A DNA stretch of 64,000 nt from Mobula hypostoma. Lineage: Eukaryota. The stretch is from NCBI RefSeq assembly GCF_963921235.1, contig NC_086107.1:99946001-100010000 (forward strand). Direction: 5' to 3'. Numbering within the stretch: the first letter of the stretch is position 1; each line of letters opens with the position of its first letter. The position numbers were made by a program, and so were the translations under genes. The notes under the pieces were generated by a model. The model was not told the origin of the DNA, searched no databases, and worked only from the letters and a program-made list of their open reading frames with translations. This document shows, in pieces, positions 19,101 to 51,139 of the stretch.

Positions 19101-22100
19101 TTGTTAACCAGAACAGTAAGCACCCAACTCCTTTACGCTTACCGCTCTCGGTGCACTTCCGGTCAGTCCGAACGGTCTGGAAGCCGTCCATGGAAAAGTT
19201 TTGATCGGGTATGTCCTCGTGCAGCTCCGTTCCAGTGAAACACATAACACTGCACTCCCGAAATGTTCTCTGACACCTGGCTAGCGCCGTGAACTCATCC
19301 ATTTTATTACCCACCGAACTCCTCTTCTCCATAAGTCTCTGTTGTCTCGACCCCGTCCTCTTTCCTCGACTTTATGATCCCCCTCTACATCCTCTGGGTG
19401 TTTTCCTCTAGATTTCAGCAGGGGTGTCCGCCGCGCTGCACGCTAAACCGGCCAGCATAAGCGCAAGCAGCTGGTCCCTGGAATACACAATGCGACCATG
19501 CTTCTGTCCCGCTAATGAGACGTGTCGGAATGTAATTATTTCCAGCGCTAAAAACCTAAATAAAACTCTCTCTTCCAGCATGTTAGAAAGGGTGCAGCTT
19601 CGACGTGTTACCGTGAGAAAAAAAATACAAAAATAACGTAAGTTAAAAAGTAAGAATACTGATCGGAACAGCTATAACAGGCTGCATGCACGTCTGGTGC
19701 ATGCGCACTTAATATTATGATTTGTGTTAATAACCTTTGAATACTTCTGTCAAAAATGTTCAACGGTGATATTTTTGGAAGGTAATTCTGTAAGTATGGT
19801 TTAAACTGCAATCAACATATCTCTGGAAGTAGGGCTTGCATTGCCAATCAGTACTGGGTTTGGGATACAAATTGCTGCTGTGGTTCAACACAATTCAGGG
19901 AGTGAGAAGGTAGGATGGTTTGCTGCACTCTGAGACATTCAGAGCAGACTGAACTGTATCACTGACGAAGGGTCTCAGCCTGAAACGTCGACTGCACCTC
20001 TTCCTACAGATGCTGCCTGGCCTGCTGCGTTCACCAGCAACTTTGATGTGCGTTGCTTGAACTGTATCGCTTGCTGGGTCTAGCCACAAGGCAACGTACA
20101 GTGAAACAGCCTGCTCATATTATAGCAACACACATCAAATTTGCTGGTGAATGTGGCAGGCCAGGCAGCATCTCTAGGAAGAGGTACAGTCGACGTTTCA
20201 GGCCGAGACCCTTCATATTATATCCTTCATATCTCTCACTGCTCATATTATATATGGATTTAAAAATAGTTTGACCTCAGTGACATAACGTTTGTTCAGC
20301 TCTCAGGCATTTTCTCCAGGTTGGGCAACCTTTGATACGGATTCTAACACCCTGATCAAAATTGGAAGAGCACAGCAGCAAGCCAGCTTCTGTTGCACGG
20401 ATAGAACTGACTTGGCCTTGCTCGCAGGGTACTACTTTTCCATGGAATCACAGAAACAGTCCTTCTACCTCTAATGTCCTTCCCAACCATCAAGTACCTT
20501 TCTGTATTGATTCCATTTACCAGCTCTGGTCTATAGCCTTCTATGCCTTGGTGATTCAAGTACAGTACTTGTGAAAATGCTTAAATGTTGTGAGAGTGCC
20601 TGCCTCCACCACCTTTTTGGGCAGAGTGTTCCCCGCTAAACTTAAACTTATACCCTCTGGTCTAAAAGATCCCTGCCAGGGGGAAAAGTATCTACTTTAT
20701 TCAGGCCACTCATAATCTTATGTACTTCTATCAATACTCTTGTCAATTTCCTCTGATCTATGGAGAACAAATGCTTAACAATTAGCCTAGTAGACTAATC
20801 CCTTCTCTGAAAAATTTCCATCCCATGCAATCTCTCAGTGAATCTGCTCTGAGTAGGGTAGAAACCAGACTGTACAAAATATCACTGTCTGCCCATTTGA
20901 GTTCCTCAGGCTGATGCATGTAAAATTGTGTTGGTTAGTCAGCTGTTAAATGGTGGTAGGTGAAAGAACCCTAATGTTTTCACTACCTAACAGCTACTTA
21001 GAATGGAGCCACCTCTTTCTCCCTTATTAGGAGAGAGAGAGCCTGCAGCATGTCGAACTATCAGGTGAACAACGAAGGCTTTGGGGTAACTGCAAGTCTG
21101 TGTCTTTGCTATTACTTTGCTCATGCCTGAGTGCTGGTAGCAGGTGCACTTTATTTTTGCCGGTAGGGGGAAGGGGGATTGTTGCTCGCTGCCACTTACG
21201 CGCGGGAGGGAGGGGAGCTGGGGGGGGGAATCTTTGGGGTTCTAACATTCAACTCTCATCCATTCTTTGGGGCACTCCTCTGTTTTCGTAGATGGTCGTG
21301 AAGAAAAAGCATTTCAGGATGTATATTGTATACATTTCTCTGACATTAAATGTACCTTTGAACCTTTATAATTCTTGTGCTCTTCAGGGCAGTGAACAAT
21401 GCTCTATTGGACACCTATCAACTGAAGTCGCTGGATGGCTTGCTGGAGGGAGACCTGGAAAATATTATGATAATCCAAGACAAAAAGGGAAAGTTCCACT
21501 TACAGCGAAGACGTGACTTTGTCCAGAAAAACACCTCGCAAGATATACCCTCCGACGGCAGTGAGCCATGCTTCCTGACTGAAGAATGGGCAGATAACCT
21601 GGCAGTGCGTCTGCCTTATGATCGTGTTATCCGCTGCTTGGGTTGGAAGTTCAACTTCTCCATTTTCAACAAGTAAGTGAATAGTCGGAGAACCATTCAC
21701 TGGTGTCAAGTAGCAGCTACAGAAGATTCCCTCTCACTATTACCTATTATTTATGCAGTGCTCTGGTGCACTATTCCATTCATGAAATTCCATGTCTCCT
21801 TTCCCACACTTGTATCCAACAGGATTGTCTCAATTTATTTCAAAGTTGTCCTGGTCCACACAGTAAAGCAGTTCTGTGTACCACATTTTCAGGAGGATTT
21901 ATTGGCCTTGGAGGAAGCATAGTTTTGATCTAGCAAAAGTTACCTTCTGAAACTGCACTAACTAGAGCAGGGGTTCCCAGCCTTTGTTATGCCATGGACC
22001 AATACCATTAAGCAAGAGGTCTGTAGAGCCCAGGTTGGGAACCCCTGAACTAGAGGTACATTCTGTGTGATTCAGACATCTGAGGTTTGATTTGACTGAA

Positions 22101-25100
22101 GCTGTCAACATTTTCGGGGAGTAAGATAGATATTTCTCTTGGTTGGAAAGTCTAGGAGAAGCATTGGACCAAGCCATTTTGGAAATTAAGTTATGAAATA
22201 AGCCACAAAGGATCATAGAATTTTAGGAGTAATTTACTCAAATGACTGTGTCGGATGTTAATTCAAACTCTGACATTCTAGTTAATCAAGTGTACACTGG
22301 AAAGTGGAGCAAAAACAGGTGCATGGAGTTTGGTCACAGATCTGCCATGATCTCACTGAAGTATACCCAGTAGCCACGGGAGTTTGATACCAAGTCCTTC
22401 AGCTACACACAGACTTGCTTTTATCATTTTTTGTCAGTATGATGTCTCATTCCCCATTGAAGAACCTTTAGGGCCTTTTACTGACATTTGTTCAGGTTCT
22501 TCTCTCCTTGTTCTGTTCCTTTTTTTCATGTTTTTCTGAAACAGTTCTTTACTTCTGAAGAAACATTTGAAAAGCAAACAACAGCAGGTACTGGAAATCT
22601 GAATCAGAAACATAAACTGACGTTTGTCCTGACGAAGGGTCTCGGCCTGAAACGTCGACTGCGCCTCTTCCTATAGATGCTGCCTGGCCTGCTGCGTTCA
22701 CCAGCAACTTTGATGTATGTTGCTTGAATTTCCAGCATCTGCAGAATTCCTGTTGTTTGCAGAAACATAAACTACTAGAAAGCATTTGCAGAGAGAGAAA
22801 TGGACTTGGTTTTAGGCCAGTGATATTTCTTCGGAACTTGGAAAGTTAGAAAGTGTATTTCTACTGTATTTCAATCTGCAGATTGAAGCTTTGCATGATA
22901 GAGTGAAGAACAAAGATACCGAATGACATGGACGTTCATAGTGCCTGCTGAGAGAGGGCGGTGAAAGCTTGTTAATTGTAGCTGATTTGTCTAAAGGTGT
23001 TATCAGAAGGAAATGAAAGAAGACAAAGAGAGGAAATGGAAGGGATGCTGGGGCTGAGAGATACAGTACTGTGCAAAGCCTTAGGCACACATATTTAGCT
23101 GGGGTCCCTAAGACCTTTGCACAATACTGTAGTAATTTTATGCATTGCACTGTGCTACTGCCTGAAAAAAAATCATGACATCTGTGAGTGATGATAAACC
23201 TGATTCTGATTTGGGTCTCTATTGCAGACTGAGAGTGGGAAGGGGGCAGGGAGAGGGGAATCATGGTTGGGAAAAGGGGAAGGGAGAGTGGAGGGAGTGA
23301 AAAGCACTAGAGAGACATTTTGTAATAATCAATAAATCAGTTGTTTGGAATCAAATGACCTTGTCTGGCATCTTGGGGCTGGGTGTGTCTGTACCCACAC
23401 TACCCCTGCCACTTCTGCTGTGCCACTTGTCCCACAGCCTTCCCGCGGTGCTCCAGCCTCACATCCTTTGCTCCGGCTAGATTTACAAACTTGCTGTCCG
23501 CTCCATATTGACAAATACAGTACTGCAGTGGTCCCCAGCCTCCGGGCCGCGGAGCATGCAAGGGTGCAGCGGTAACCGGAACGCACCCAGCACATCTTTA
23601 AGAAAAAAGCAGAAATAAACAAGCTAATTAATTAGGTGCCGCCCAGGTCAGAGGCGATTGCCGAGAAGATCGCTGCCCGGTATCAGTCCGCGGCCTGGAG
23701 GTTGGGGACCACTGCAGTACTGTACAAAACACTGAAGCTGCTGCAAATCTGAAATAAAAGAGAGTGCTGGAAATGCCCTATAGGTCGGGCAATGTCTGTA
23801 GAAGGAGATAATTTTGAGTTGCAGGTAGATGACAAACTGGAAAGACTACTTGTCTGAAATTTCTTGTTAAATGCTGACAGTTGTAAAGTGATGAGTTAAA
23901 GGATGAAGTGACGATTGTTGAACTTGCACTGAGCTGTTGTGATATAGTGCAAGAGGTCAGAGTGAGAATGAATGTAGAATTAAAGGTCTCAGTGACAGGG
24001 ACCAAGGGATACCTAGCTTGACTACTATGAAGATAGAAGGGACCTAAAATTCATTAAGTCATAGAGAGGTACAGCATAGATACAGACCCTTGGTCCCACC
24101 AAGTCGATGCAAACCATCAATCATCCATACACTGTAATCACGTGTTAATTAATTTTTTTATTCTCCCCGCATTTTCATCAACTACCCCCAGATTCCACCA
24201 CTCGCAGTCTTGGGCCAATTAATCTATTAACCTGCACGTGTCTGGGATGTGGGAGGGAAATGGAGCACCATGAGCTCCATACAGCTAGCACCTGAGGCAG
24301 AAATAAACTTGTTTGTGGCAATGAGAGGCAGTGGCTTTATTTACTTCACCACCCTAAATTGTTGAAGCACTCATTTTGCTTTCCCAATGCTGTTGTCTTC
24401 CCAACAGTCTTACGAAGCTTCAGAGGGGTCAAGGTCGCATGAATAAGTATCCACTGATCAAAGCCTCTTACGAAGCAGTAAATCTTCCAGGAATGTATGT
24501 TGTAGGGACAGCCAGTCATTCCATTGATTTTAGGAAGGCAGCTGGCGGCTTCATCCATGGGTTCCGCTACACAGGTATGTATCAGAACCAAATGCAGTTT
24601 GTTTGTTATGTGCTGTGTTGAATGACATAGGCAGTCATGGTCTTTGACCATGATTGTTCCTGGCAAATTTCTCTACAGAATTGGTTTGCTATTGCCTTCT
24701 TCTGGCCGGTGACTTTACATGAATGATAACCCCAGCCATTATCAATACTCTTCAGAGATCGTCTGCCTGGCGTCAGTGTCACATACCCAGACTTGTAATG
24801 TGCAAAGCTACTCATACGACCATCCATCACCTGCTCCCATAGCTTCACGTGATCCCGATCGGGGGCTAAGCAGGTGCTACACCTTACCCAAGGGTGACCT
24901 GCAGGCTAGCAGAGAGAAGGAGCGCCTTACACCTCCTTTGGTAGAGACGTACCTCCACCCTGCCACCCTCAGTTGCAGTACCTGAACTGAAAACACACAT
25001 TAAGTTTGCAGCATAGATACAGAAATTCCACCTTACAAGTCTGTATCTGTGCTTCCACTTCTCATCACCATCACACCCATTCAACACATCACTCTATTCC

Positions 25101-28100: not shown

Positions 28101-31100
28101 GTCCCATATACCTTAGTGAACAAACTCCTATTCCTCGTTCTAAAGACACCACTGTGCAAGTTGGTGTTGGACTTCCTAACGAATACACCTCGGATAGTCA
28201 GGATCCACAACTGCTCCTCGCTCCCCAACATCCTCAACAAGGGCCCCCCCCCCCCCAGGGCTGTGGCTGAGCTCATTGTCGTACACTCTGCCCACCCGTC
28301 ACCTGTGACTGCAGGGCCAAACACCAGAGCAATCACAGCGCCAAGTTTAACAGTGGTGGGGCTCATCGCCAACAATTAGGTGGTCTACAGAGAGGAGATG
28401 GCAGACGTCTGGTGCCAGGCAAATAGCCTCTTCCTTCACATCAAAAGACAAATGAGATGTTTTCGACTCATACCACTCACACCCCCCTTTACATCAGCGG
28501 CACAGCAGTGGAGACTGCTGGGAGTGCAAATCACACACAACCTCGCATGGTCCCAGAACGCAACCTATACAGTCAGGAAAGCTCACCAATGCCTCTACTT
28601 TCTGCGAAGTCTGAAAAGAGCTGGACTTTGCACATCCATAGTCACTTCATTCTACGAGTGCATGGTGGAGAGCTTCCTGCCAAGCTGCAGTACTGCTTGG
28701 AACAGAAGCTGCACTGCAGCAGATGGAAAGACTCTGCAACAGGTAGTTAAAACTGCCCAACGCACCACCAGCACCAGCCCACCCGAAGTCAAGGGCATAT
28801 GGACAGAAAGGTGCCAGAAGAGGGCCAGGAAGATCATGAACGACCCCACCCAACCTGCTCATGGACTGTTTGTCCCACTCCCATCAGGGAGGAGGCTACG
28901 TAGCATCCACCACCAGGACCACCAGACTCAAAAACAGTTACTTTCTCCAGCAGTAAGGCTGATCAATACCTCCACCCACTAACTCCTCTTTTACTTTTAC
29001 TATTTTCTGTCAGTCGGCTTACGTGCAGCATAACATCACTTTATGTATGTATGTATTTGTATTTATTGTTTTTTATCTTTTGTGTGTTGCATCAGATTTG
29101 GAGCAACAATCTCGTTCTCCTTTACACTTGTGTACAGGAAATGACTTTCCAGCAACTTCCATCAAGTGGATTTGGTTTCACTTTATAAGGAGATGACCTG
29201 TAACATTGAGTAAACGAAGCGGAAAAGTGACTCATAATAATCAAATGGCCTACTGGTCTGAAACAGGCAGGAAAGATGAGGACAATTTATCTTCTCCACT
29301 AATAGCTTTTTGACATCTTGGTCAAGGTCTGATGTTACATCAGATCAGTGAGAAACATAAAACAAAGAATACTTCCCTGTCCAGCGGAGACAAGACCTTG
29401 GGCTGATTATATGTACCCTTTAAAGTAAGAGTCATGTGTATAAGCTGTCCCGGATGACGCATCTATTCCTTGACTTTTGGTTACGCTGCATTGGATATGA
29501 GTGCTGAGAACCAGAATTCTCCAAGGTCCTTCAGTTCATGCCAGGCTGCTCAAGCAATTAGTTATCTTCCTAGGCCGAGGAGACCATGGAGTAATTTGGT
29601 ACCAGTTTTCTCCCGAGGATGACAGATTGGGCTTGGGAAGGGTAGTTCTGTTAATGGCCAGCAAAGCAATTTGCAATTGCTCTATAATTCTGCTCTAGTT
29701 AGAGGATATGACCTGCTTTGCAGCTCCTTCAGTTTCTTTGAAACCAGAGCTGGAACTGGATCAGCAAATTTGCTGATGACACCAAGACTGGGGGTATAGC
29801 AGATGGCGAGGAAAGCTATCATGGCTTGCAGTGGATCACCACGAGCTGGAAAAATGGGCTGAAAAATGGCAGATGGGATTTAATGCAGGCAAGTGCGAAG
29901 TGTTGCGCTTTGGTAGGAGCAGTGAAGGTAGGTCTTACTGAGGGGTGTGGTAGAACAAAGGGATCTGGGGAATACAGGGCCATAATTAATTGAAAATAGT
30001 GTCACAGGTAGATAGGTCATAAAAAAATGCTTTTGGCACATTGGCTTTCATAAATCAAAGCTTTGAGTATAGGAGGTGGGATGTTATGTTGAAGTTGTAT
30101 AAGACATTAAGAGTATTGTGTGCAGTTTTGGTCTCCTATGTGCAGGAAAGATGTAAATAAGGTCAAAAGAGTGCAGAGAAAATTAACAAGGATGTTGCTG
30201 GGTCTGGAGGACCTGACTTATAAGGAAAGGTTGAATAGGTTAGAACTTTATTCCTTGGAACATAGAAGATTGAGAGAAGTATACAAAATTATGAGGAGTA
30301 TAGTTAGGGTAAATGCAAGCAGGCTTTTTCCACTGATGTTGGGTGGGACTACAACCAGAAGTCGTGGGTTAAGGGTGAGAGGTGAAAAGTTTAAGGGGAA
30401 TATAAAGGGAAACTTCACTCTGAGGATCGTGAACATGTGGAACAAGCTGCCAGCACAAGTGGTGTTTGCAAGCTTAATTTCAGGGTTCAAGAGAAGTTTG
30501 GATAAGTACATGGGTGGAGGGCTATGGTTCCGGTGCAGGTAACGGTAGTAGGCTGTTTAAGTGGTTTGGCATGGACTAGATGGACAGAAGGGCCTGGTTC
30601 TGTTCTGTAGTTTTCTATGATTCTGCGACTCCATAACTTGTGAAAGTTGGTCAATAATTGCAAGTTCTTACATTACGACATCGGATACTCTGGCACATGC
30701 AGCGTGAACCATGACTGAGTTTGAATGGATGCCCTCACCAAATCAAAGTCAGATTTGTCATAGCTGCCAATATCATTCTCTTCAACATTTAAAAAAATAT
30801 CTTGAACATGCCTGATCACGCATGAAGCTTGGCTGCCACTTGTGGGTTATGCTTGTAAAAAACTTGTGCTTTTTGGTCACTTCCACCAGCTCGTGTAGTC
30901 CACCGTCTGATGGAGTATCGATACCACGGTGTCCACTGGCCATCTACTGTCCAGCCCATCACCCAGCTGACTAATGCCATCATCAGGCGCATCAACGAGG
31001 CCTCTGGTACTTACCAAATGTTCAGTGTCCTTGCTGACATTGTGCTGCTGCAAAAGTGAGTAAACTGCCACTTTAATGTCACTAATTAGAAGGGTTCAGT

Positions 31101-40100: not shown

Positions 40101-43100
40101 TCACGGCACCTGGTCCATTCTCTGTCTCTCTCTCCCGCCTTCTCCCTCAAAACCCCAAGCATACAAATCTTCCAGATACACCAAAGTCATAACAACTATC
40201 CCAATTGATTCGTAACATCCTCTTATCACCCTCTAACCCACAACAAGCTGCTGGCACAAAGCTTTCTCAACGTTTAACATAACAAAGAAGCATTCCGGAG
40301 TATAACGTAACAAAGTAGCCATTTTAATTAGCCTCCGCAGTAACATAAAAGACGAAACCCCCTTACAAATAGAAACATAGAAAATAGGTGCAGGAGTAGG
40401 CCATTCGGCCCTTTGAGCCTGCACTGCCATTCAGTATGATCATGGCTGATCATCCAACTCACAACCCTGTACCTGCCTTCCCTCCATACCCCCTGATTCC
40501 TTTAACGCCACAAGGGCCATATCTAACTCCCTCTTAAATATAGCCAATGAACTGGCCTCAACTGTTTCCAGTGGCAGAGAATTCCACAGATTCACCACTC
40601 TCTGTGTGAAGAAGTTTTTCCTCATCTCGGTCCTAAAAAGCTTCCCCTTTATCCTTAAACTGTGACCCCTCGTTCTGGACTTCCCCAAGATCGGGAACAA
40701 TCTTCCTGCATCTAGCCTGTCCAATCCCTTTAGAATTTTATACATTTCAATAAGATCCCCCCTCAATCTTCTAAATTCCAGCGAGTATAAGCCTAATCAA
40801 TCCAGTCTTTCTTCATATGAAAGTCCTGCCATCCCAGGAATCAATCTGGTGAACCTTCTTCGTACTCCCTCTATAGCAAGAATGTCTAGAATCGAGTCGA
40901 GAGCTGGTGGGGTGGGGAACATGCTTGTAAGAAGGAAGTGGGTTTGAAAGCATTTTTTAAAAAAGTTTTCTGGCAAGGGTCTTGGATCGCCCAATTGTTA
41001 TCAGTGCACAGCAACTGGAAGTTGTGTGTTAGTGGAGATTATTGAAGATGAGGCTGGGTTGAGGTGTAACCCAGGGGAGGGGGAGTTTTCTGTACTCACT
41101 GGCTGTTAATGTTACTCCTGCTTTGGAATATTTAGGAATGCCACCGAGTTTGAATATTTGGAAGAGTATCCAATTGGAGTACTTCCGTATCTTTGGGAAA
41201 ACACTGGGAAGAATGTTGAAAACGGATTGTTCGTTATTAATTTGGAATATGGGAGCAACTTCTCCAAACCAGAGGCAGACGTTTTTCATCCTAGCCGTTC
41301 AGTGGGAGAGCCAAAGGATGCATGGCTCTCAAACTTCCTCCACCCTGTCATCTACTTCTACAGATGCCTCCCAACAGGTCAGTATTTCATTCTTTCCACC
41401 CTCTTTTGCTTCTTCAAAGACCCCTGAATGCCATGGCCTGTTTGCTGGCTCTCATGTTGACAATAGGTGTGTCAACTTTAGCAAGAGAACTACAGCTGTG
41501 GTTCCAGACACCACAGCACATGATTGACTGGAGCTCCAGGATATTGCCTGGGATTGAATGCTTCAGTTACTTGAAGAAATGGAATAGGCTAGATTTGTTT
41601 TCCTAGGAGCAAAGAAGGCTGAGGAAGGACCTGGTAGAGGTGTACAAAATTATATGAACAAACATGCTCTATGTAGTTTGAATTCTTTTCCAATAGCACT
41701 GGGATGCCTAAGACCGGAGGGAAAGAAGTTTTTCACCCAAAGGGTGGTTTCAATCTGGAAACATATTGCCTGAGGGGGAGTTGGAAGCAGGGACCATTAA
41801 AATGTTTAAGCATCTGGACAAGCACTTGAATTGTAAAGACAGCAGAATATGGAGCAAGTGTGGTCAGTGGGATTAGTACTTAATGATTGACATAAATGTG
41901 GTGGGTCCCAGGTGCCTGATCTGTGCAGTATGACTTTGTGAATCTTTGTGAGTGTTCAAGTTTCAAGAGGTCAGCTGGATCTTGTCTTGTTCTTCATGGC
42001 ATTAGAACTGATGGTGAAAGCCAACATGTTTACCCTGGACAGATCATTTAGCACAGAAACAGACCCTTCAGTCCAACACATCCATACTAACTAAGGTGCT
42101 CACAAAAGTGAGTCCCATTTTCCTCCATTTGGCTCATATACCATTGCTATCCATATACTTAATCAAATGTCTTTTAAACATCCATTATTGTACCCACTCC
42201 AACTACCTTTCTCTGGCAATTCATTCCACATACGCACTACACGCTGCATGAACAATTTGCTCCTCAGGTCCCTTTAAAATGTTTCCCTTCTTACCATAAA
42301 CCCCTGTCCTCTAGTCTTTGATTCCCTTTTCCTGGTAAAAATCTGTGTGCTTTCACCCCCATGTCCTTCCTGATTCTATACACCTCTATAAGGTCACCTC
42401 TCAATCTCCCCCGTTCCAAGGAATAAAGTCCTAGTCTGCCCAGCCTCTCCCTAACAACTCAGGCTCTTGAGCCCTGGCAATGTTCCTGTGAATCTCCTTT
42501 ACTCCTGTATCTTTCCAATTTAGTGTTGAAAGAACAAGGTGGCTAAAACTAAACACACTACTCCAAATGTGGCTTCACAAAATGTCTGCAGCGTAACATC
42601 CCAATGCCAGTACTCAGTGCACTGACTGTTGAAGGCCAGTGTGTCAAAAGCTTCCTTCACCACCATTTTCAGCAAATTATGTACCTGTATTCCTTAGTCC
42701 CTCTGTTACACAACACTGCCAGGGCCCTGCCATTCTCTATGTAAATCCTATCCTGGTTTGACTTCCCAAAGTACAATTCCTTGTACTTAACTGGATTGAT
42801 AGTCATTTGCTGATTCTGGACCCACTTGCCCAGCCAGTTGATCAAGATCTCCCTTATAATTTTTTGATAGCCTTCTTAACTGTCTACGATGCCCCCTAGT
42901 TTAGCATTATCAGCGAGCATATCAACCATGTCTCGTGCATTCATGTACAAATGATTTACAGTATATAAATAACAGGGAGTTCTGGGTGCAATGAGCTGGA
43001 GGTCCCAGGTATAGAGTCTCGCGCGGCATATGCAGTCTGCCCATGTGCCGGAAGTGCTGCCGGTCTGTGTTCGGAGAGCCCTCAGTGTGGTCTATGGCCA

Positions 43101-45395
43101 TGCAGTAACCCAGGAACATGGCTGATAGTGCGATCGTGCAGTGGGAGCTGATTCTAAACAGGCAGAGTAGATGCAGCTTGTCTTTTTTTTTGTTCACTTC
43201 CAGAGACAGAGATGATGCAAAGACCGAAGTTCTGGCCGCTGCCACGGCCGAGCTACATCCATCACATTGTAGAAGACTTCCTGACAGACTGGACAGCTGC
43301 CAAAGCTCACATTCTGCCCCTGCGACGCTTCCTGGAGACCTGCCTGGGCACTGACCTCAGAAACTTCTTTGCAGGTGTGACATCCTTTTGGAACAAAGGC
43401 ATTTCCTTACAAATAAATGCCTTTAACTCCAGGTGTTTGCCCCAGGCTGGGGACGATTCCTGTTTCTGTGAATGCATGCACTCTCGGAATCTGTAGCAAT
43501 AAGGAAACACAGGATGGGATGATGCGCCATCACAGCCAGGAGTCTTTGTGTCCTTGACTCCAGCTGTCCTCTACCTTCTGCTACCATCCTGCACCTTCTC
43601 AGGTGAGCTATCAGCATAGAACCTGGGCTGCAGGGTAGTCAAATGGGCTAGACTACGAAGTTCATTGTCTGGTCGACAGTGCTGAGGTAAGTTGGCAGGA
43701 CAATGCCCCTGTAGCAGAGCTTGTGAGGTTTGTGGGGGGGGGGTCACAGGGTGGGGTGCTTGTTAGGGTGGATGGGTCACATTGCTTCATGGAGTTCCAT
43801 GCTGTACCAGAGATCTTGACTTTGGCCACGTGGTTCGCAGTCACATCTTTATTCGCTGTGCCTTGGACGCAGTCTCAGTTGCCAGTATCTCAGCTGGTTC
43901 TCATTTACCAGTCCAGATGTGCCAGTATCTAATCTGCATCAGAACCATAATGCTGTACGATTTATTCCCCTGCTCACTGTTGCTTACCCTGATTAGTTTC
44001 CAAAAGTGCAGGGGTTCCCAACCTTGTTTATGCCATGGACCAATTACCATTAAGCAAGCGGTCTGTGGAAGCCCCTGCATTGGGAGGGTCTAGGACCAGA
44101 GGGCACAACCTCAGAACATAAGGACGCTCCTTTACAACAGAGATGAGGAGAAATTTCTTTAGCCATAGAGTGTGGGATTTATTGCCACTGATGGCTGTGG
44201 AGGTCGTCATTGGGTATACCTAAAGGAGTGGTCGATTAGTTCTGATTAATAAAAGTGTCAAAGGTTACAAGAAGAAGGCAGGAGAAAGGGGTTGAGAGAG
44301 AAAGTCAATCAGCCGTGATCGAATGGTGGAACAGGCTCATTGGGTTGAATGTCCTAATTCTGTTCCTATGTCTTATGGACTCTGGGCCCAGGTCAGATTG
44401 GGTAGTAAGCTGTGCAGTTTGCAGCTTTCATGATTTTTCTTCCATCAGCTTGCAGTTAGCAACATCTTCAGAGACTGGGTTGAGGGTTAAATGTTTCTGT
44501 GGATTGAGGATGTTGACAATGCATCTGGTGACATCTGCAAAGAGACTCCCTGGCAGAATCTGCTGGTGGTATAGAGGCTTACAATACTGGGGGAGGCCAT
44601 TCTGTCAGTCATGTCTTTGCTGAGGTTTTTCCTGTCCACCTCACATTTGGCCCATACCCATTGTGATATAAAGGAACAGGTGAAGAAGGTTCATTGCAAC
44701 AGACCTGTGCAGTAGTGGTAGAGCAAGTTGTTTAGTGTGCACTTGATTGGCAGAATCTGGTACAACCGAGCACGCATTCGCCGTTTTCCAGTTTCCTCCA
44801 CTCTGGCAATCGAGCTGTTCTGAGGTTTGCCAATTCCACACAGGTTAAGGATAAACTGTGTGGCTAAGCTGTGGTGTCTTTGTTGACTGTCAGCAATGAC
44901 CTAGAGGGAACTCTTCCCCCTCTGTCAGGTAAAGAGTTGACTCTTTATGTGCAGTCCTGAAAGAGTAGAGGTACTTCCTTGAGTTGAGATATTTAAAATC
45001 AATAAAGCCTTGGGCACAATTTTGAGCAACAGATTAGGATCCCTCTATGCCCTGACCAATATTTATTGATTGGTCAACATCATTAAAACCGATTTCCATG
45101 CCATTAATTACATAACTTTTGAGAGCTTGTAATTAATGTTTGCTACACTTCAGAAGTACTCAATTCATTGTAAATGGAGCATCTTGAGGTCGTAAAGAAC
45201 CCTTTGATAACACTGGGAAAGTCTCTTATTTGAAGAATGGATAGTTTTTGGATAAGAATGTGTGGTAACATTTCATTCCAACGAGTTTCCATTCTCCCTG
45301 CAGAATCCTGCTTCAAGTTTGCTTTAACCAGCCAGCATCTGCCACCCAGCTGTCACCATGGTTACTTAAACATGCAAGGGTTACTGGTCAACTAG
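7121..45395 (+). CDS. FOXRED2: FAD-dependent oxidoreductase domain-containing protein 2 (ERFAD), spliced gene. CDS join(7147..7679,11318..11569,21388..21672,24408..24574,30890..31055,41136..41377,43204..43374,45304..45395), 635 aa
   Basis: Eight exons with GT/AG boundaries and matching phases (2,2,2,1,2,1,1), totalling 1908 nt = 636 codons including TAG. The product has a signal peptide, the FAD motif VIGAGPSG, a second dinucleotide motif [10 protein letters not shown], and blocks recognisable as FOXRED2 ([43 protein letters not shown]). A splice acceptor at 7119-7120 implies an upstream non-coding exon, which I did not locate. Confidence 0.96.
7147..7679 (+). CDS. FOXRED2: FOXRED2 coding exon 1 (exon starts at 7121): signal peptide and FAD-binding Rossmann motif
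   Basis: Acceptor tctttctctttcatttccag at 7101-7120; ATG in agcATGg context; MAASWIRC...[11 protein letters not shown]...HHYRC; donor AG|gtatgg at 7680. Confidence 0.96.
8465..9900 (-). mobile_element. Old degraded LINE (CR1/L2 group)
   Basis: Decayed RT-like ORF remnants on the minus strand; boundaries approximate. Confidence 0.5.
9339..9401 (+). mobile_element. Very short 5'-truncated retroposed 3' end (L1-type)
   Basis: AATAAA followed by an A-rich (AAAG)n tail; 11-bp TSD GATTGGTCTCC at 9328-9338 and 9402-9412. Confidence 0.8.
9930..10350 (+). mobile_element. Rex1/L2-group LINE 3' fragment
   Basis: C-terminal [25 protein letters not shown] motif followed by the shared AT-rich 3' UTR. 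Confidence 0.7.
11318..11569 (+). CDS. FOXRED2: FOXRED2 coding exon 2
   Basis: Long pyrimidine tract ending in ccag; (S)[27 protein letters not shown]...[10 protein letters not shown]...THYVGDL(R); donor gtaagt at 11570. Confidence 0.97.
14017..14215 (-). mobile_element. SINE with an RTE/BovB-like 3' tail
   Basis: gttcagtcgttaagtcgagcccaactcttcgtgacctcatggac resembles the BovB/Bov-A 3' end; B-box-like gagttcaaacc on the minus strand near 14160-14170. Confidence 0.6.
14441..14729 (-). mobile_element. tRNA-derived SINE with an RTE-type tail
   Basis: Minus-strand head with A box TGGTCAAGTGG and B box GTTCGAGCC; 10-bp TSD CATTGTTGCA (14431-14440, 14730-14739). Confidence 0.88.
15495..15780 (-). 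mobile_element. tRNA-derived V/HE1-like SINE
   Basis: Minus-strand head ggtggcatgatagtgtagtggttagc...gggttcaaatccc; central ggtgctctggtttcctcccacagtcc domain. Confidence 0.82.
16123..16355. mobile_element. Young Penelope-derived mini-insertion, palindromic, with an intact minus-strand minimal hammerhead motif (16226-16261)
   Basis: 15-bp TSD TAAAAGTTTTACAGA (16108-16122, 16356-16370); two ~90-bp inverted arms. Confidence 0.88.
16226..16261 (-). ncRNA. Minimal type I hammerhead ribozyme motif
   Basis: Minus strand reads AGUC-CUGACGA-AGGGUCUCGGCCU-GAAAC-GUC^GACU. Confidence 0.75.
16851..17043 (+). mobile_element. Young Penelope-derived mini-insertion with a partial 5' inversion; hammerhead motif at 16907-16940 has core CUGACAA (G8 changed)
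   Basis: 13-bp TSD TCTGGTACCAGTA (16838-16850, 17044-17056). Confidence 0.88.
18763..19710 (-). mobile_element. Non-autonomous, internally deleted Rex1/Babar-like LINE derivative with a (CTAT)n tail
   Basis: 5' region plus APE N-terminus ([39 protein letters not shown]) joined directly to the last ORF codons ([15 protein letters not shown]) and a microsatellite tail. Confidence 0.82.
19961..20057 (+). mobile_element. Young Penelope-derived mini-insertion; hammerhead core intact but the 5' stem-I strand is missing
   Basis: CTGACGA AGGGTCTCAGCCT GAAACGTC GACTG; 11-bp TSD TGAACTGTATC (19950-19960, 20058-20068). Confidence 0.87.
20125..20238 (-). mobile_element. Young Penelope-derived mini-insertion with filler DNA at one junction
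   Basis: 14-bp TSD CTGCTCATATTATA (20111-20124, 20239-20252); truncated inside the hammerhead core. Confidence 0.85.
21029..21367 (+). mobile_element. Non-coding retroposon 3' portion with a (TGAACCTT)-type tail, ending ~20 nt upstream of FOXRED2 coding exon 3
   Basis: Ends attaaatgtacctttgaaccttt; a related end (aataaatgaacctttgaaccttt) lies at ~38600-38620. Confidence 0.7.
21388..21672 (+). CDS. FOXRED2: FOXRED2 coding exon 3
   Basis: Acceptor tcttcag; [20 protein letters not shown]...[19 protein letters not shown]; donor gtaagt at 21673. Confidence 0.96.
21968..22047. mobile_element. 80-bp hAT-type MITE
   Basis: TIRs CAGGGGTTCCCAGCC / GGTTGGGAACCCCTG; 8-bp TSD AACTAGAG. Confidence 0.92.
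22619..22759 (+). mobile_element. Young Penelope-derived mini-insertion carrying an intact sense-strand minimal hammerhead motif
   Basis: 14-bp TSD CAGAAACATAAACT (22605-22618, 22760-22773). Confidence 0.9.
22626..22659 (+). ncRNA. Minimal type I hammerhead ribozyme motif (Penelope-associated, predicted dimer-dependent)
   Basis: GUC-CUGACGA-AGG(GUCUCGG)CCU-GAAAC-GUC^GAC: complete catalytic core, stem I GUC/GAC, short stem II, and a loopless stem III containing the ACGU palindrome. Confidence 0.75.
23063..23129. mobile_element. Tiny Tc1-like MITE / inverted repeat heading a composite repeat
   Basis: ta|cagtactgtgcaaagccttaggcac...gtccctaagacctttgcacaatactg|ta. Confidence 0.7.
23526..23714. 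mobile_element. 189-bp hAT-type MITE (CpG-rich, young)
   Basis: TIRs CAGTGGTCCCCAGCCTCCGGGCCGCGGA / TCCGCGGCCTGGAGGTTGGGGACCACTG; 8-bp TSD CAGTACTG. Confidence 0.92.
24408..24574 (+). CDS. FOXRED2: FOXRED2 coding exon 4
   Basis: Acceptor cccaacag; LTKLQRG...[10 protein letters not shown]...[23 protein letters not shown]; donor gtatgt at 24575. Confidence 0.95.
24628..24970 (-). mobile_element. SINE-like element with RTE/BovB-related segments
   Basis: Segment ttcctggcaaatttctctacagaattggtttgctattgccttcttc resembles Sauria-SINE/BovB-derived sequence. Confidence 0.55.
25470..25868 (+). mobile_element. CR1 LINE RT fragment
   Basis: [45 protein letters not shown]. Confidence 0.85.
25869..26345 (+). 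mobile_element. Penelope-like element 3' fragment
   Basis: Same sequence family as 5190-5660, including a degenerate hammerhead-bearing terminal repeat. Confidence 0.75.
27130..29140 (+). mobile_element. Rex1/Babar-like LINE, internally deleted and degenerate
   Basis: APE motifs [36 protein letters not shown] remnant PPQGC; C-terminal [15 protein letters not shown]...[16 protein letters not shown]. Confidence 0.85.
29760..30630 (+). mobile_element. CR1 LINE 3' fragment
   Basis: [38 protein letters not shown]. Confidence 0.9.
30890..31055 (+). CDS. FOXRED2: FOXRED2 coding exon 5 (absent from the ORF track)
   Basis: Manual translation after ttccaccag gives [55 protein letters not shown](K); donor gtgagt at 31056. 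Confidence 0.96.
31175..31825 (-). mobile_element. CR1 LINE 3' fragment split by an RTE insertion
   Basis: [11 protein letters not shown] / [14 protein letters not shown] is contiguous across the insertion. Confidence 0.85.
31400..31666 (-). mobile_element. 5'-truncated RTE-clade LINE 3' end
   Basis: AADRTMWRQ...[23 protein letters not shown] zinc finger; GA-rich tail; 10-bp TSD CAGATTCACC (31390-31399, 31667-31676). Confidence 0.85.
32648..36437 (-). pseudogene. L1 ORF2 (APE endonuclease + RT + CCHC) with one nonsense codon and one +1 frameshift
   Basis: [61 protein letters not shown] at 35298-35300 is in frame with the downstream ORF, and an extra A lies at ~33960. Confidence 0.95.
36800..37777 (-). 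CDS. L1 ORF1p (coiled coil + RRM + CTD), open, 325 aa
   Basis: Heptad region followed by [32 protein letters not shown] and LYPARLRV motifs. Confidence 0.93.
   Translation of the reverse strand: MMSKNKNKMSASKADKYKEMQQGEGPSSPTASQDGDNEGESVTLSLILGEIREFRQDNSKQLEDIKGEIVKTNSRIDEAEARIVGIEEKLQNAEEVIAEMLKLQDQLQWKLIDQEGHSRRENVRIYGVPEGKPGLMIPFVEKLLRENLDIPAAKDLKIERAHRALAPQPPAGAQPRSILIRFLSYRTKEEVLKRAWQKEGFMWNNCKISLDHDYALGILARRKEYTETRRVLKENNIRFQTLYPARLRVFYDEGTKTYATVEEATSDLADRGLPIKVITQPESLLERIRQKSWQLVGRGRSTRNRVSNYKEKLQIFRRKCTENTD
39670..40367. mobile_element. Solo LTR (698 bp)
   Basis: TGTA...TACA termini; 4-bp TSD AATA (39666-39669, 40368-40371); no internal coding sequence. Confidence 0.82.
40370..40886 (-). 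mobile_element. CR1 LINE 3' fragment
   Basis: [47 protein letters not shown]; (TTCTATG)-type tail. Confidence 0.9.
41136..41377 (+). CDS. FOXRED2: FOXRED2 coding exon 6
   Basis: Acceptor atttag; [12 protein letters not shown]...LFVINLEYG...[16 protein letters not shown]; donor gtcagt at 41378. Confidence 0.95.
41540..42960. mobile_element. Two degraded CR1 3' fragments (41540-41940 on +, 42045-42960 on -)
   Basis: Decayed RLDLFSLEQRRLR and FFTQRVV..WN motifs in opposite orientations. Confidence 0.7.
43204..43374 (+). CDS. FOXRED2: FOXRED2 coding exon 7
   Basis: Poly-T tract ending in ccag; [32 protein letters not shown]...[22 protein letters not shown]; donor gtgtga at 43375. Confidence 0.96.
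44009..44380 (+). mobile_element. 80-bp-family MITE (44009-44078) followed by a CR1 3' fragment
   Basis: caggggttcccaacc...cccctg, then [21 protein letters not shown]. Confidence 0.75.
45304..45395 (+). CDS. FOXRED2: FOXRED2 last coding exon (absent from the ORF track), ending at an early TAG
   Basis: Acceptor tctccctgcag; [33 protein letters not shown] at 45393-45395. Confidence 0.92.
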
Positions 45396-48300
45396 AACGT
45401 GCGGCACACTCACAGGGTTGAGGAAATGGACTGTCCTTCTCACGACACCGTCTCTGTCGAGGAACACTCACACCAGAGCTTGTCCAACGAGCAGAGGGAG
45501 AAGCCCTTAGCCACAGTGATTACCTGAGCAACAGAATGATTCGAGGAGTTGCGACGTAGTGGTCTATCCACCAGTGTACCTCAGCCAGGTGAGGCCCAAG
45601 TGCACTCACAGTTTCTCCAGTACCTTACAGCTCTACTCTTTAAAGCTAAACTTCTGTATAGTAAAGCATTATGCTGCAAGTAAGGGAACTTCAAAGCAAA
45701 AGCAGATCATGCTGGAATCACTCAGCAGGTCTGGCGACATCAGCAGAACCCAACCCAGCTACTATACTCTCCCTAGACAGCTTGCTAGACCTGTTTAGAT
45801 TTTATGCAATGTAATGTAACATTTATACATGAATTATCAAGCCAAAAAAATATTTATTCATTTAACAGGGAGACTGTTTTTACATTATTGGATTCGCTAC
45901 TCACTGGGGCTTTCCTGAAACATTTTTTAAAGAAGTTTTTTATTGTAGGTGTGATAGATTTTTGTTTGCATGATAGACTTTTGTATTCAAGTCACTCCTG
46001 GTATTAAAAAATTTTTTAACGTAGGACTTGCGTGACATATGGCTGATCCGTTAGTGTTGCTAGTTGGTGTATAGTGATGATCTGGCTTTAACCTAAAGTC
46101 ACTAAAGGAACTTGGGCATTATCGCAGTTCTGTGTGGGCATGCCTGTTCGGTATTTTCTGCATTCCATCAGGGACTGTACTTCATGTGGTTTTGGAAGGC
46201 ACAAATGAATGCAAGTCATTTCTTGTTTCTGAGTTGGGGCTTGTTTTTATTCGTGACTGGAGGCCTTGTACGACAGGCTTGCTGGAACCGTGGCTGAGTT
46301 CAGCTCAGACTGGTGCTTGTAAACAACATGCAGAGCAAAGGAGCAGTCAGACAGACCTGGACTTGCCACCTCTCCTTCGCTGTATCTCATCCAAAGAAAA
46401 AGAACTGTAATGCCACGAGATTCCTGCAGAGGGTGCAACTGAGCTATTGTCATTAGTGGACATGGGTAAATTCTGAGCCACATGCCAAATAATCTACTGG
46501 CAGGAATGAATCAGTGGAGACTTGGCAAATAGAACGGGGTGTAAAAGGCCTCAGGAAGTCACGTCAGTCAGAGGAAAAGGTAGCAGGACAGCAAAAGCAA
46601 CTGAATAAATGTGTTTTGGACCAAAAGAAACCAAAGAGTCAGTATACAGGCAGTGGGAAGATGTTGCAGTGTGCATGAATCAAAAGGCCAAGGGACTGAA
46701 ATATATAATCCCCAAAGGTGAGAGTGTGGATGACCAACAGAATCGGAAGCTCTACTCCAAGTAAAAACTGGGCAGAATGCTCCTTGTATTGCTTGCAAAG
46801 TCAGCAACTGTGTAAATCACAGAGACTTGAGAGAGATTCATTCAGACAGAGGCCCTCCCTGATCTGTAATTTCTGTCAACCCAACCTACAAAGAGGTGTT
46901 GTCATCCTGGGGGCGGGGGGGGCAGACGGAGGTTTTTTTTCCTCACCTTGGGCTTAGTTTCCAAACTTATCAGCACAGTGGAATCCTGGGCTGCAATCAA
47001 TCACCTCCTGGGCATCTTTCCCAGTACAGGCACCGTGCCCTTCCTTACATTCTCAGACCCTGCTGGCCTCGTGGTTTTCAACATGTTTGGATTTGTTTTC
47101 CCCTATTTTCCTTGTCTGCTCGCTTTTCCTGTGGCTCACATTGTTCCAGGCTCTGCGTGTATGATTCATTGCCTTTAAGTCATTCACAGTCAGGTCAGAC
47201 TGTTTCTTTTGTTCCATTATGATCTTATACACTCCATTTAATCAGTACAATCCTCAGTAAGGGTATGAAGTCTCGCTGGATTCTGCAAAAAGGAAGTCCA
47301 CCTGTTTGCTCCCCACTGCCTGCAGACGGTGTAAATGTGATTGCAGGTTGAATCTTGTGACAAAAGGAGGACGAGCTGCATCCTGACATGGTGCTGGACG
47401 ATGCTCAGTGCTGTGTCACTGGGTAAACGTCAGGGAACTGATGCTGGATGACATCCCAGCCACATGGTGTGCTTCACTAGCGCAGTGTTCCTTACAGGAT
47501 ATGTCTACACCGTTCTCCTGTCTAGTACGTTTTCCTCTCCAGTCCCCCTGCCCCACCCTATTACTTTCATTTTCTGCTCTCCGCTCGAGGGCCTTTCACC
47601 AATGCTCCTTTACCAATGTTCCCTCTAATGGCAACAGTGCGCAAAAAATCTTGCGCTGTGCAATTTTTTGCCCAGTGACAACAACATGTGCGCACTGAAT
47701 TTTTAAGTGGAAGTAAACCTAAAGCTAATCCAAGGATAATAAACTACAAATTCCAGTTTGTTTAAAAGAAATGAAATAACTGTCAATAAGAACTTTGATC
47801 AGGATTCAACCCAAGTCTCTGTTGCTGTGAGTTTATACCAAGAGAGCTCACACTAAGTTTGGTTAATGTTTTCCAGTAACCAAACTTGAATCAGCTGACT
47901 CCAGCCGCTGCAAGCTGGGCCCCGTGGCAGTGGGGAACGCCTTCACCTTCAGAGTGTGATTGTTTACACTGTCATGGGCTCCGTGAGATAGCAGAACAAA
48001 CACTCTCTAACTTCCTGATCTGCTGAGAGTTAAGCAAAAGATTACTTGTTGCATACACCTGTTAGGGTGCATTCTCCAGTTACCTTATAAGGTAACTGCA
48101 ACAATGCATGTTAATCTCAAAAGCTAAATCTTGGCGCGGACCCAATATAATGACTGTAGCAATGGAGGGCTGCGCCCACCTGTCTTCCACTGCTGCTCGT
48201 CCCTGTGGCTTCATGGGATACAGCTTGCCTTGGAGAAGACAAAGCTGAGAGTGATTTAGTATTAATATTCAGAATCCTGCAAGGTTTTGCCCCCTCACAA

Positions 48301-49029: not shown

Positions 49030-49062
49030 GTGTGTGTGTGGGTGTGTGTGCGTGTGTGTGTG
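49030..49062. repeat. (GT)n microsatellite within a SINE 3' region
   Basis: Imperfect GT run. Confidence 0.85.
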
Positions 49063-51005: not shown

Positions 51006-51139
51006 CTCATTTTTTTGAAATTATAGAATCATAGAGTCACACACGGAGTCTGAAACAGGCCCTTCAGCCCATATGTCCAGCAGCCTTATTTCATTAGGAG
51101 TCTGAAGAGATTTGGTATATCACAAAAGACTCTTGCAAA

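Follow-up and report, generated by a model that had tools for sequence, protein, structure and literature searches.

The product of FOXRED2 is a flavoprotein of quality control in the endoplasmic reticulum (ER), and human FOXRED2/ERFAD (Q8IWF2), the ortholog of the ray protein described here, is a soluble ER-luminal ERAD flavoprotein with a KEEL end. In peroxisomal LDHB and MDH1 of mammals, a cryptic C-terminal targeting signal is exposed by stop-codon readthrough; the ray locus resembles them in having a candidate sorting motif in frame shortly past the annotated stop, and differs in that FOXRED2 gives no sign of readthrough, three stops intervene and the context is not a known leaky one. HA-tagged human FOXRED2 (KEEL) was ER-localised and, according to Table I of Raykhel et al. 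2007, was still found in the ER when a stop preceded the motif. Published work names OS-9, ERdj5, SEL1L and ERp90 as partners of ERFAD and gives KDEL-like ends for non-human ERp90 orthologs. Human ERp90/TXNDC16 is, according to PMC3040216, also a soluble ER protein that has lost a KDEL-like C-terminus and is yet ER-resident, but in this case an extension of six residues, confined to humans, masks the motif, with no upstream stop, and the protein belongs to another family. The nearest full-length relatives of the ray protein, from Hypanus sabinus (P0002), Hemitrygon akajei (P0301) and Pristis pectinata (P0003; 676–677 aa), have no KDEL-like end either; they run on for about 41 further residues (K636 to T676), with K or E where the window (the whole stretch of 64,000 nucleotides that was analysed) has TAG. 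Skates and orectolobiform sharks have the same outcome as Mobula through independent early stops 5–8 residues past QG (635–638 aa), but with another stop position and by an event in another lineage.

The features of the locus are as follows:

7147..7679, + strand: exon 1, with the start codon, a signal-peptide-like hydrophobic N-terminus and the beginning of the FAD-binding fold
11318..11569, + strand: exon 2 (Hypanus tblastn, spliced model)
21388..21672, + strand: exon 3 (Hypanus tblastn, spliced model)
24408..24574, + strand: exon 4 (Hypanus tblastn, spliced model)
30890..31055, + strand: exon 5 (Hypanus tblastn, spliced model)
41136..41377, + strand: exon 6 (Hypanus tblastn, spliced model)
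43204..43374, + strand: exon 7 (Hypanus tblastn, spliced model, RNA-like contig junction)
45304..45392, + strand: coding part of the terminal exon 8 (translation, spliced model)
45393..45395, + strand: TAG, the stop codon in use in this lineage, at the alignment position of K636 in Hypanus, E in Pristis and G in Heptranchias
45396..47100, + strand: 3'UTR, collinear with RNA-like contigs and continuing about 0.58 kb past 47100
45396..45524, + strand: former coding tail, now 3'UTR (43 codons, no stop, no frameshift; aligns with the Hypanus and Pristis tails)
45525..45527, + strand: older stop TGA, used by Hypanus, Hemitrygon, Pristis and Heptranchias
45528..45554, + strand: A-T-E-stop-F-E-E-L-R (GCA ACA GAA TGA TTC GAG GAG TTG CGA), a putative xEEL relic

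The eight exons have canonical GT/AG splice sites, and the spliced model is translated into 635 aa identical to RefSeq protein P0302 (635/635). An earlier, sequence-only reading of this DNA had placed the end of the protein at TAG 45393, with 635 aa and without a KDEL-like signal, and the gene model and P0302 agree with it. P0299, the RefSeq FOXRED2 of a congener, is also 635 aa long, has the C-terminus GLLVN and is identical to P0302 at 627/635 positions. Exon 1 showed 91% identity to Hypanus P0002 (tblastn) and about 58–65% to primate entries. A Pfam Pyr_redox_3 match covers residues 37–300, hydropathy peaks at residues 8–22 with no other TM-like stretch in the protein, and six N-x-S/T sites are present; from the N-terminal hydrophobic stretch and these sites, the ray protein is predicted to enter the secretory route with its signal peptide still present. 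The Pyr_redox_3 FAD/NAD(P) fold region, the signal-peptide-like N-terminus, the cysteines up to C622 and the GYLxxQG motif are shared with the human ortholog, the tail of which, however, runs 60 residues on to KEEL, whereas the ray protein ends five residues past G631. The 3.48-Gb assembly gave protein matches only at the eight exons of this locus, in a stricter first look from which weak paralog matches could escape. The gene is very probably the FOXRED2 (ERFAD) ortholog of a mobulid ray, present in one copy and expressed.

Read evidence was taken from Logan contigs, not from raw reads, and rare variants get dropped in such contigs; that these runs are "RNA" is a guess, but the contigs do skip the intron. 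The junction 43374>45304, with GT..AG ends, was present in RNA-like contigs of three organisms. Record 23 spans 45301–47100 gap-free, and records 24 and 9 (4233 and 4292 nt) reach 576–587 nt further. An RNA-like contig of run X5, from another sample of organism A (the organism of the window), connects 43374 to 45304 and covers 45301–47100 gap-free with one difference (46011) and the same TAG. In the RNA contig of organism B, none of the substitutions listed (36/38) lies at 45393–45395; for organism C, 19/60 substitutions were listed, too few to place codon 636. TAG in FOXRED2 is genuine, because the contig of the other sample agrees and P0302 and P0299 both terminate at the residue preceding it, and FOXRED2 is cut short by about 44 codons. 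An error in base calling or assembly, disfavoured already in the sequence-only reading, is of negligible probability, and nothing was found in its favour: the contig of the independent sample is identical at the site, and the independent assembly of a second species ends at the same residue (P0299).

Translation beyond TAG was reproduced as previously described and gives NVRHTHRVEEMDCPSHDTVSVEEHSHQSLSNEQREKPLATVIT (...ATVIT), followed by TGA 45525–45527, ATE, TGA 45537–45539, FEEL 45540–45551 and CGA 45552–45554, the L of FEEL lying 57 codons past the G of QG. Exon 8 plus the 45396..45524 stretch aligns codon for codon with Hypanus (83% identity), and Pristis also aligns through 45524. Full-length proteins end at 45525 with ...LATVTT (Hypanus, Hemitrygon), ...PLPITTT (Pristis) and ...PLVTPTT (the hexanchiform shark Heptranchias), and a KDEL-like FOXRED2 end was found in 0/19 named cartilaginous-fish species. 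It had been proposed that TAG 45393 itself removed a KEEL-type tail, the other stops and the lost original stop being later decay. The frame past TAG is indeed a clear coding remnant that runs to FEEL, and that part of the proposal holds as far as the Hypanus alignment extends; but relatives without TAG stop at 45525 with ends -TVTT, -ITTT or -TPTT and no retrieval motif, and TGA 45525, counted as decay, is where related rays and the hexanchiform shark normally stop. Since the 43 codons are free of stops and frameshifts and the A-lineage changes polarised by Hypanus number only two, TAG appears recent and TGA 45525 old, which makes the proposed sequence of losses very improbable. In all likelihood the old TGA 45525 came first and the Mobula-lineage TAG second. 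Because relatives with the longer tail also have no KDEL-like motif, TAG probably took away no ER signal, the trimmed tail being already without one.

Stops of cartilaginous-fish FOXRED2 occupy seven distinct positions (19 species); the skates Leucoraja, Amblyraja and Rhinoraja end in ...GLLGNESL, and the orectolobiforms Chiloscyllium, Hemiscyllium, Stegostoma and Rhincodon in ...GLLDVEIF. Tail conservation ceases at G631 (the last well-conserved residues among 44 orthologs are C622, Y626, Q630 and G631), the proximal tail motif, HAVEAGL[LM] in bony vertebrates, is degenerate throughout the aligned cartilaginous fishes, and residues 624–676 of the AlphaFold model of Hypanus FOXRED2 have pLDDT <50. 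Owing to the absence of a KDEL-like end, the seven cut positions and the degenerate proximal motif, the tail seems to have been long dispensable in this class; the Mobula TAG adds a further truncation to a tail that is poorly conserved and modelled with low confidence. The best explanation as a whole, to which a probability of about 0.8 is assigned, is that the Mobula TAG is the latest trimming of a signal-free FOXRED2 tail. A single-base nonsense change at codon 636, turning an AAG- or GAG-like triplet into TAG, would have been fixed before the two Mobula species split and would have shortened the protein from about 676–679 aa to 635 aa, with the loss limited to the distal tail and the cut five residues past the last conserved residue, G631. 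Under the exon-junction rule, an mRNA with its stop in the last exon escapes nonsense-mediated decay; because TAG lies in the last exon, FOXRED2 mRNA should evade it, and spliced RNA-like contigs exist.

Among tetrapod/lungfish/coelacanth-list proteins of at least 640 aa, 91/103 end in [KR]x[DE][LF] (mostly KEEL, KDEL and KDEF), and 94/119 teleost clusters end in xx[DE][LF] (mostly KLDF, KLDL and NFDL), so that bony vertebrate FOXRED2 ends in K[DE]EL or [KN][LF]D[LF]. Ape entries end in ...QHRVES...NKEEL, 60 residues past QG, in agreement with the primate tail as described in the sequence-only reading. None of the lamprey and invertebrate FOXRED2 examined has a KDEL-like end. It is conceivable, if doubtful, that an elasmobranch or jawed-vertebrate ancestor ended in xEEL and that a nonsense change at what is now TGA 45525 cut the last 7–9 residues including the signal; FEEL (TEEL in the sister organism) would then be an untranslated remnant, and the tail, dispensable from then on, would have been cut repeatedly, with the Mobula TAG as the latest case. 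Such a history would account for why bony vertebrates keep the long tail and cartilaginous fishes have it cut at seven positions, and KDEL-like ends in both bony vertebrate branches make the signal at least as old as their common ancestor; a single gain in the bony-vertebrate stem is, given the lamprey and invertebrate ends, nevertheless one step shorter than a gain plus a loss. The older stop is moreover common to batoids and a hexanchiform shark, so the remnant must have lasted untranslated since before their split.

The tail to FEEL is close in length to that of apes (57 codons against 60 residues), and FEEL sits eight codons beyond TGA 45525. In-frame [DE]EL occurs at 2.3e-4 per codon in the six frames of the window and is rare after a stop there: 17/6173 nine-codon stretches (0.28%) and 81/6161 53-codon stretches (1.3%) contain it. 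FEEL would also be a competent signal by a human reporter assay, in which F at -4 equals K, -3 accepts all but P, and positions -2 and -1 favour E and L respectively. Organism B has six bases absent between 45532 and 45542, 45540 T>C and 45552 C>T, which by our reading would give A-S-T-E-E-L directly followed by TGA; 3'UTR branch lengths (A 17, B 19, C about 42 substitutions) put the root on the branch of C and would make TEEL-TGA of B derived, not ancestral. MAFFT places tetrapod KDEL on elasmobranch ...EQRE, not on FEEL. When elasmobranch tails were slid along C-terminal profiles (80 tetrapod, 81 teleost proteins), the best offset was 3–6 in 8/10 tests and 12 in one, as against the 7–9 predicted for a relic; the window against the tetrapod profile (-5.6 at offset 5, -9.9 at offset 8) was the only test nearly as good near the predicted offsets, and no score in the sliding tests was significant (shuffle p 0.09–0.90). 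Homology of FEEL to KEEL is thus unproven, and chance is judged roughly twice as probable as a relic. The low chance figure (0.3–1.3%), together with F being competent at -4, is uncomfortable for the chance reading. The CGA>TGA change of organism B is a common CpG transition.

Species lacking TAG might still make a retrieval signal by reading through TGA 45525, or the signal might come from a different terminal exon or reading frame. Of the stop codons, UGA leaks most, and in organism B, if the upstream TAG is set aside, one stop separates ...VIT from ASTEEL-TGA. In the present organism, however, ribosomes would need to pass three stops, CGA comes directly after FEEL, and TGA 45525 precedes a G, whereas the known leaky context UGA-CUAG has C there. 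Rfam elements at threshold were absent from 43000–48500, where two chance-level hits were obtained. An alternative last exon, which had been suggested as a check, did not appear: the RNA-like contigs of the three organisms show no junction other than 43374>45304 and run collinearly across the stops, and the alternative isoforms annotated for relatives have non-KDEL-like ends (AAPFI, ATMTLS or PPEAR). Continued production of the signal is therefore most unlikely.

For the 635-aa protein of the preferred reading, the earlier suggestion of retention through partners is plausible. Because human FOXRED2 without KEEL remains in the ER, partner-based retention is the likely mechanism, by analogy with human overexpression data; the ray protein would be held in the ER by KDEL-independent binding to SEL1L, OS-9, ERdj5 and ERp90. 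Secretion is possible. P0302 and P0299 differ at 8/635 amino acids, 3'UTR divergence between the coded organisms is 2.1–3.3%, and the rough dN/neutral ratio is about 0.2 if the species of P0299 is assumed to be about as distant as organism B or C.

The exon structure of FOXRED2 (ERFAD, an ER quality-control flavoprotein) was established by tblastn with the 676-residue protein of Hypanus sabinus (P0002), which matched all eight coding exons in order on the plus strand with 78–92% identity. Exon boundaries were fixed by a search over nearby splice sites, in which one model was identical to the annotated protein; GT/AG was found at every splice site. The exons, as located by tblastn and the spliced model, are the following:

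7147–7679, plus strand, FOXRED2 exon 1
11318–11569, plus strand, FOXRED2 exon 2
21388–21672, plus strand, FOXRED2 exon 3
24408–24574, plus strand, FOXRED2 exon 4
30890–31055, plus strand, FOXRED2 exon 5
41136–41377, plus strand, FOXRED2 exon 6
43204–43374, plus strand, FOXRED2 exon 7
45304–45395, plus strand, FOXRED2 exon 8 including the TAG stop codon

The spliced model was translated into 635 amino acids, identical at 635 of 635 positions to the RefSeq protein of Mobula hypostoma (P0302). The search with exon 1 gave 1931 matches at E ≤ 0.001; nearly all of the best 120 of these carried the names FOXRED2 or FXRD2, apart from Logan entries lacking a name and a few entries labelled as hypothetical, unnamed-product or L-amino-acid-oxidase. 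Pfam placed PF13738 (Pyr_redox_3, E 7.5e-29) at residues 37–300, with PF07992 likewise above its cut-off, and the FAD/NAD(P)-binding pyridine nucleotide-disulphide oxidoreductase fold of FOXRED2 orthologs is present. Binding of FAD and participation in ERAD are known solely for the human protein (PMC3040216). FOXRED2 is single-copy: nothing but these eight exons matched in the 3.48-Gb assembly, with the caveat of a stricter filter in the protein search. Against a unitary pseudogene, or a gene otherwise in decay, stand the eight open exons, the canonical splice sites, the spliced RNA-like contigs in three organisms (A, the source of the window, and its relatives B and C) and the location of the stop beyond the last conserved residue. 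A rough measure of constraint (dN/neutral ~0.2) was obtained from the 8 amino-acid differences per 635 between the two Mobula proteins (P0302 and P0299, the latter from Mobula birostris) and the 2.1–3.3% divergence of the 3'UTR between organisms A, B and C, a ratio that presumes the P0302–P0299 distance to be comparable to the distances between these organisms. The shortened Mobula gene looks functional.

The terminal exon stops at TAG 45393–45395 and the protein ends in L-L-V-N; the sequence-only reading had reported this stop, the length of 635 residues and the lack of a KDEL-like end, all of which were reproduced by translation and by the spliced model. In the same frame, the TAG is followed by 43 open codons (NVRHTHRVEEMD...KPLATVIT), TGA 45525–45527, A-T-E, TGA 45537–45539, F-E-E-L and CGA 45552–45554, so that the described run-on to FEEL, with its L 57 codons past QG, was found as well. 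Read evidence was taken from assembled contigs, not raw reads, with the run types (RNA or DNA) being guessed. In X5, a run from a different sample of organism A, one contig skips intron 7 exactly (43374 joined to 45304, GT..AG), and a second spans 45301–47100 with one difference (46011) and no gap. Organism B, represented by one RNA-like and one DNA run, provided an RNA contig over 45299–47098, for which 36 of the 38 substitutions are listed, none of those at 45393–45395; 19 of 60 substitutions are listed for organism C. The RefSeq protein P0299 also comprises 635 residues, ends in GLLVN and is identical to the window protein at 627 of 635 positions. Because the X5 contigs, the organism B contig and P0299 agree, the TAG is genuine, and a base-call error, already argued against from the sequence, is excluded by the unchanged codon in the second sample. 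The intron-skipping contigs (4.2–4.3 kb) look like full-length mRNA. Contigs run collinear past the stops and FEEL over 1.8 kb or more, reaching ~2.3 kb in organisms B and C, and exon 8 is the sole junction listed out of exon 7. Under the exon-junction rule, nonsense-mediated decay is not set off by a last-exon stop; the presence of the transcript thus fits the last-exon position of the TAG. The 635-residue product itself is not new, the protein and its early TAG being already annotated in RefSeq. Position 46011, in the 3'UTR, is A in the window and in organism B and T in the other sample of organism A and in organism C, likely a shared polymorphism or a recurrent change. An Rfam scan of 43000–48500 (E ≤ 1) returned two chance-level matches, SOX2OT_exon2 (20 bits) and Bacilli-1 (19 bits), both far under their gathering scores.

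C-termini were compared by means of the PROSITE pattern [KRHQSA]-[DENQ]-E-L, supplemented by the broader range of motifs in Raykhel et al. 2007. The translated window protein, ending in L-L-V-N, carries no such tetrapeptide, the FEEL being untranslated, and a KDEL-like end was found in none of 19 named cartilaginous-fish species (9 batoids, 9 sharks and Callorhinchus; one entry is N-terminally incomplete and one species name is incomplete). The terminal tetrapeptides of the relatives are TVTT, ITTT, TPTT, NESL, VEIF, TEER, SEEC, IEVH, LSND and LHEQ, none of them KDEL-like; alternative isoforms in three species end in AAPFI, ATMTLS and PPEAR. The proteins terminate at seven distinct alignment positions:

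Ends of FOXRED2 in cartilaginous fishes
Callorhinchus: ...DLHEQ
Skates: ...GLLGN[ED]SL
Orectolobiform sharks: ...GLLDVEIF
Mobula: ...GLLVN
Lamniform, heterodontid and Mustelus sharks (one common column): ...EER / EEC / EVH
Narcine: ...HLSND
Hypanus, Hemitrygon, Pristis and Heptranchias: at the window's TGA 45525

In the tetrapod, lungfish and coelacanth lists (at least 640 residues), [KR]x[DE][LF] closes 91 of 103 proteins (KEEL 41, KDEL 25, KDEF 11, others), and seven further records are partial, ending in AKDE. Ape entries finish ...QHRVES...NKEEL, 60 residues past QG, in agreement with the primate ending given in the sequence-only reading. An xx[DE][LF] end was present in 94 of 119 teleost clusters (KLDF 27, KLDL 22, NFDL 15, NLDF 7, others). 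Galliform birds have KDEF in place of KDEL (11 clusters, among them P0062, P0063, P0067, P0069, P0074, P0077, P0078, P0093, P0096 and P0099). The teleost list (P0304–P0422) consists mostly of KLDF, KLDL and NFDL, that is, with D at −2, a residue that gave only partial ER localisation in the human reporter assay of Raykhel et al. 2007 (PMC2140024). No KDEL-like end was found in lamprey (...AADDLV) or in the molluscan, hemichordate, echinoderm and chelicerate proteins among the matches listed. Nine of 148 distant family representatives end in [DE]EL, [DE][DE]L or [KRH]xEL (KDEL, HDEL, xSEL and one KEEL fragment), and KDEL-like ends therefore arise repeatedly in the family. Taken together, the class-wide absence of the signal and the repeated truncation make a modest but clear comparative finding. 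In a search of the open-access literature, no paper dealt with the tail of cartilaginous-fish FOXRED2; the best-ranked one uses Foxred2 merely as a synteny marker, and the papers listed for FOXRED2/ERFAD and its KEEL end concern the human protein or unrelated subjects.

Opposite the TAG codon stand K636 in Hypanus and Hemitrygon, E in Pristis and G in Heptranchias. The proteins of these four relatives stop exactly at the window's TGA 45525 (...ELATVTT, ...KPLPITTT, ...GPLVTPTT). It had been proposed that a nonsense TAG stripped FOXRED2 of its ER-retrieval tail and that the stops further downstream reflect later decay. The protein is indeed real, truncated and devoid of a signal, but the TAG did not remove one: relatives without the TAG end in -TVTT, -ITTT or -TPTT, with no motif. 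The order of events has to be reversed, the first of the supposed decay stops, TGA 45525, being the ordinary stop of stingrays, sawfish and a hexanchiform shark; therefore, the TAG is the younger event. Between TAG and TGA 45525, the 43 codons contain zero stops and zero frameshifts, and this intact stretch fits a recent TAG placed upstream of an old TGA. Two amino-acid differences from organisms B and C lie within it (45411 and 45433), and these changes belong to the window's own branch, because both sites read Y in organism B, in organism C and in Hypanus.

An alignment of 44 sequences has its last invariant or near-invariant residues at C622, Y626, Q630 and G631, and conservation collapses past G634. 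The motif L-R-R-H-A-V-E-A-G-L-[LM], located right after QGL, is kept in bony vertebrates, mammals and teleosts included, and even in molluscs; it is degenerate (RVEEMDYP, EAEMDHP) or deleted in all 13 cartilaginous-fish sequences aligned. In the AlphaFold2 model of Hypanus FOXRED2 (mean pLDDT 70.5), residues 624–676 score below 50. Because of this collapse, the degenerate motif and the low pLDDT, the tail clipped by the TAG is taken to be a poorly conserved appendage, and probably a disordered one. Among the 41 residues missing from the Mobula tail, E, T, S and H are abundant. The Mobula TAG removed no part of known function. The site of the degenerate proximal motif (Hypanus positions 638–650, window 45399–45440) lies inside the untranslated remnant, and decay of this motif may mark a class-wide change in whatever the motif does.

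For the FEEL itself, an older loss may be envisaged: an early-elasmobranch nonsense mutation 7–9 codons before the end would have cost the KDEL-type signal and left an xEEL remnant in the 3'UTR, the tail then being cut independently in at least six lineages. The remnant, FEEL here and TEEL followed by a stop in organism B, would be readable still owing to slow genome evolution, and cartilaginous fishes as a class would run FOXRED2 without a signal that bony vertebrates keep. In-frame [DE]EL is scarce in the window (2.3e-4 per codon; 0.28% of nine-codon and 1.3% of 53-codon stretches past stops), the total tail length to FEEL matches that of the tetrapod tail, and KDEL-like ends occur in both bony-vertebrate branches. 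FEEL would, moreover, be a competent signal by the human reporter assay, in which F at −4 equals K (Raykhel et al. 2007, PMC2140024), and a relic would explain why the tail is expendable only in cartilaginous fishes. The outgroups, however, have no motif, so that the history with the fewest steps is one gain in the stem of the bony vertebrates; and the older stop, common to batoids and the hexanchiform shark, predates their split and therefore demands a very old relic. In organism B, six bases are missing between 45532 and 45542, with 45540 T>C and 45552 C>T; from these listed changes, the second TGA is gone and a stop stands right after EEL (A-S-T-E-E-L-TGA). Judged by substitutions along the 3'UTR branches (A 17, B 19, C ~42), the root nevertheless falls on the branch of C, and the TEEL-stop of B is therefore derived, its CGA>TGA change being a CpG transition.

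Two comparisons of the tails also leaned slightly against a relic. When the read-through tail (X at stops) was aligned with 25 tails by MAFFT, KDEL paired with ...EQRE and not with FEEL, the distal tail being too divergent for reliable alignment. In the second comparison, ungapped profiles were built from the final 22 residues of 80 tetrapod-type and 81 teleost sequences, and the window tail and those of Hypanus, Hemitrygon, Pristis and Heptranchias were slid along them. Offsets of 3–6 were favoured in 8 of 10 tests against the predicted 7–9 (Heptranchias/teleost 4, Pristis/teleost 12), a result that is not significant, with all scores negative, shuffle p values of 0.09–0.90 and one test nearly as good at 8. 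Since the low chance probability must be weighed against a low prior, FEEL as a relic is regarded as possible but somewhat doubtful. Its confirmation in other elasmobranch 3'UTRs would date the loss of the sorting signal and provide a textbook-style molecular fossil.

The window protein has a hydrophobic, signal-peptide-like stretch at residues 8–22 (hydropathy), no second candidate for a membrane span and six N-x-S/T sites. In Table I of Raykhel et al. 2007 (PMC2140024), HA-tagged human FOXRED2 (KEEL) in transfected cells is located in the ER and is still found there with a stop before the motif; the authors ascribe such cases to binding of other ER residents. According to PMC3040216, ERFAD has OS-9, ERdj5 and SEL1L as binding partners and is stably complexed with ERp90, whose non-human orthologs have KDEL-like ends. 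By analogy, ray FOXRED2 would probably be held in the ER by such partner proteins; alternatively, it may be secreted. Signal-free FOXRED2 in cartilaginous fishes agrees with the cell-culture result that KEEL-less human FOXRED2 stays in the ER. ERFAD is a little-understood luminal ERAD flavoprotein whose retention bears on models of the reductive arm of ERAD, and the split between bony and cartilaginous vertebrates is a natural experiment suggesting that the enzyme may do without the signal, still working or at least being kept under apparent purifying selection.

Further observations concern annotation and repeats. Hypanus isoform X2 (P0001, 592 residues) lacks exactly exon 2, that is, 84 residues of the nucleotide-binding region, as checked residue by residue against P0002. 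Annotations for alligator, ratites, lizards, cats and bats likewise include isoforms shorter by ~84 residues, and isoforms of ~600 residues are found in many tetrapods; this suggests that an exon-2-skipping form is widely annotated, with Hypanus as its residue-level basis. Database entries in which FOXRED2 is joined to ANKRD54 (osteoglossiform fishes; teleosts P0305 and P0274) or to EIF3D (aardvark P0443) are probably annotation read-throughs; exons of these two genes, sought as neighbours, were not found within the 64-kb window. The repeats and mobile elements are the following:

155–487, plus strand, DDE_3 (Tc1/mariner-like) transposase fragment (PF13358, E 1.8e-12)
32648–37810, minus strand, L1-type LINE in FOXRED2 intron 5 (at least four stop-separated ORFs, GC 0.34–0.36)
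33942–35297, minus strand, LINE reverse transcriptase (Pfam PF00078)
35298–36443, minus strand, LINE endonuclease domain (Pfam PF03372)
~43904–44439, very high-copy interspersed repeat in FOXRED2 intron 7

The two flanking ORFs of the LINE gave no Pfam match. At the intron 7 repeat, hundreds of contig ends hang loose, and the summed contig depth reaches ~2.3e5 in a DNA run and 4.4e4 in an RNA-like run, versus ~10 in the flanks. ORFs of at least 110 residues in 47500–64000 are repeat-derived in appearance.
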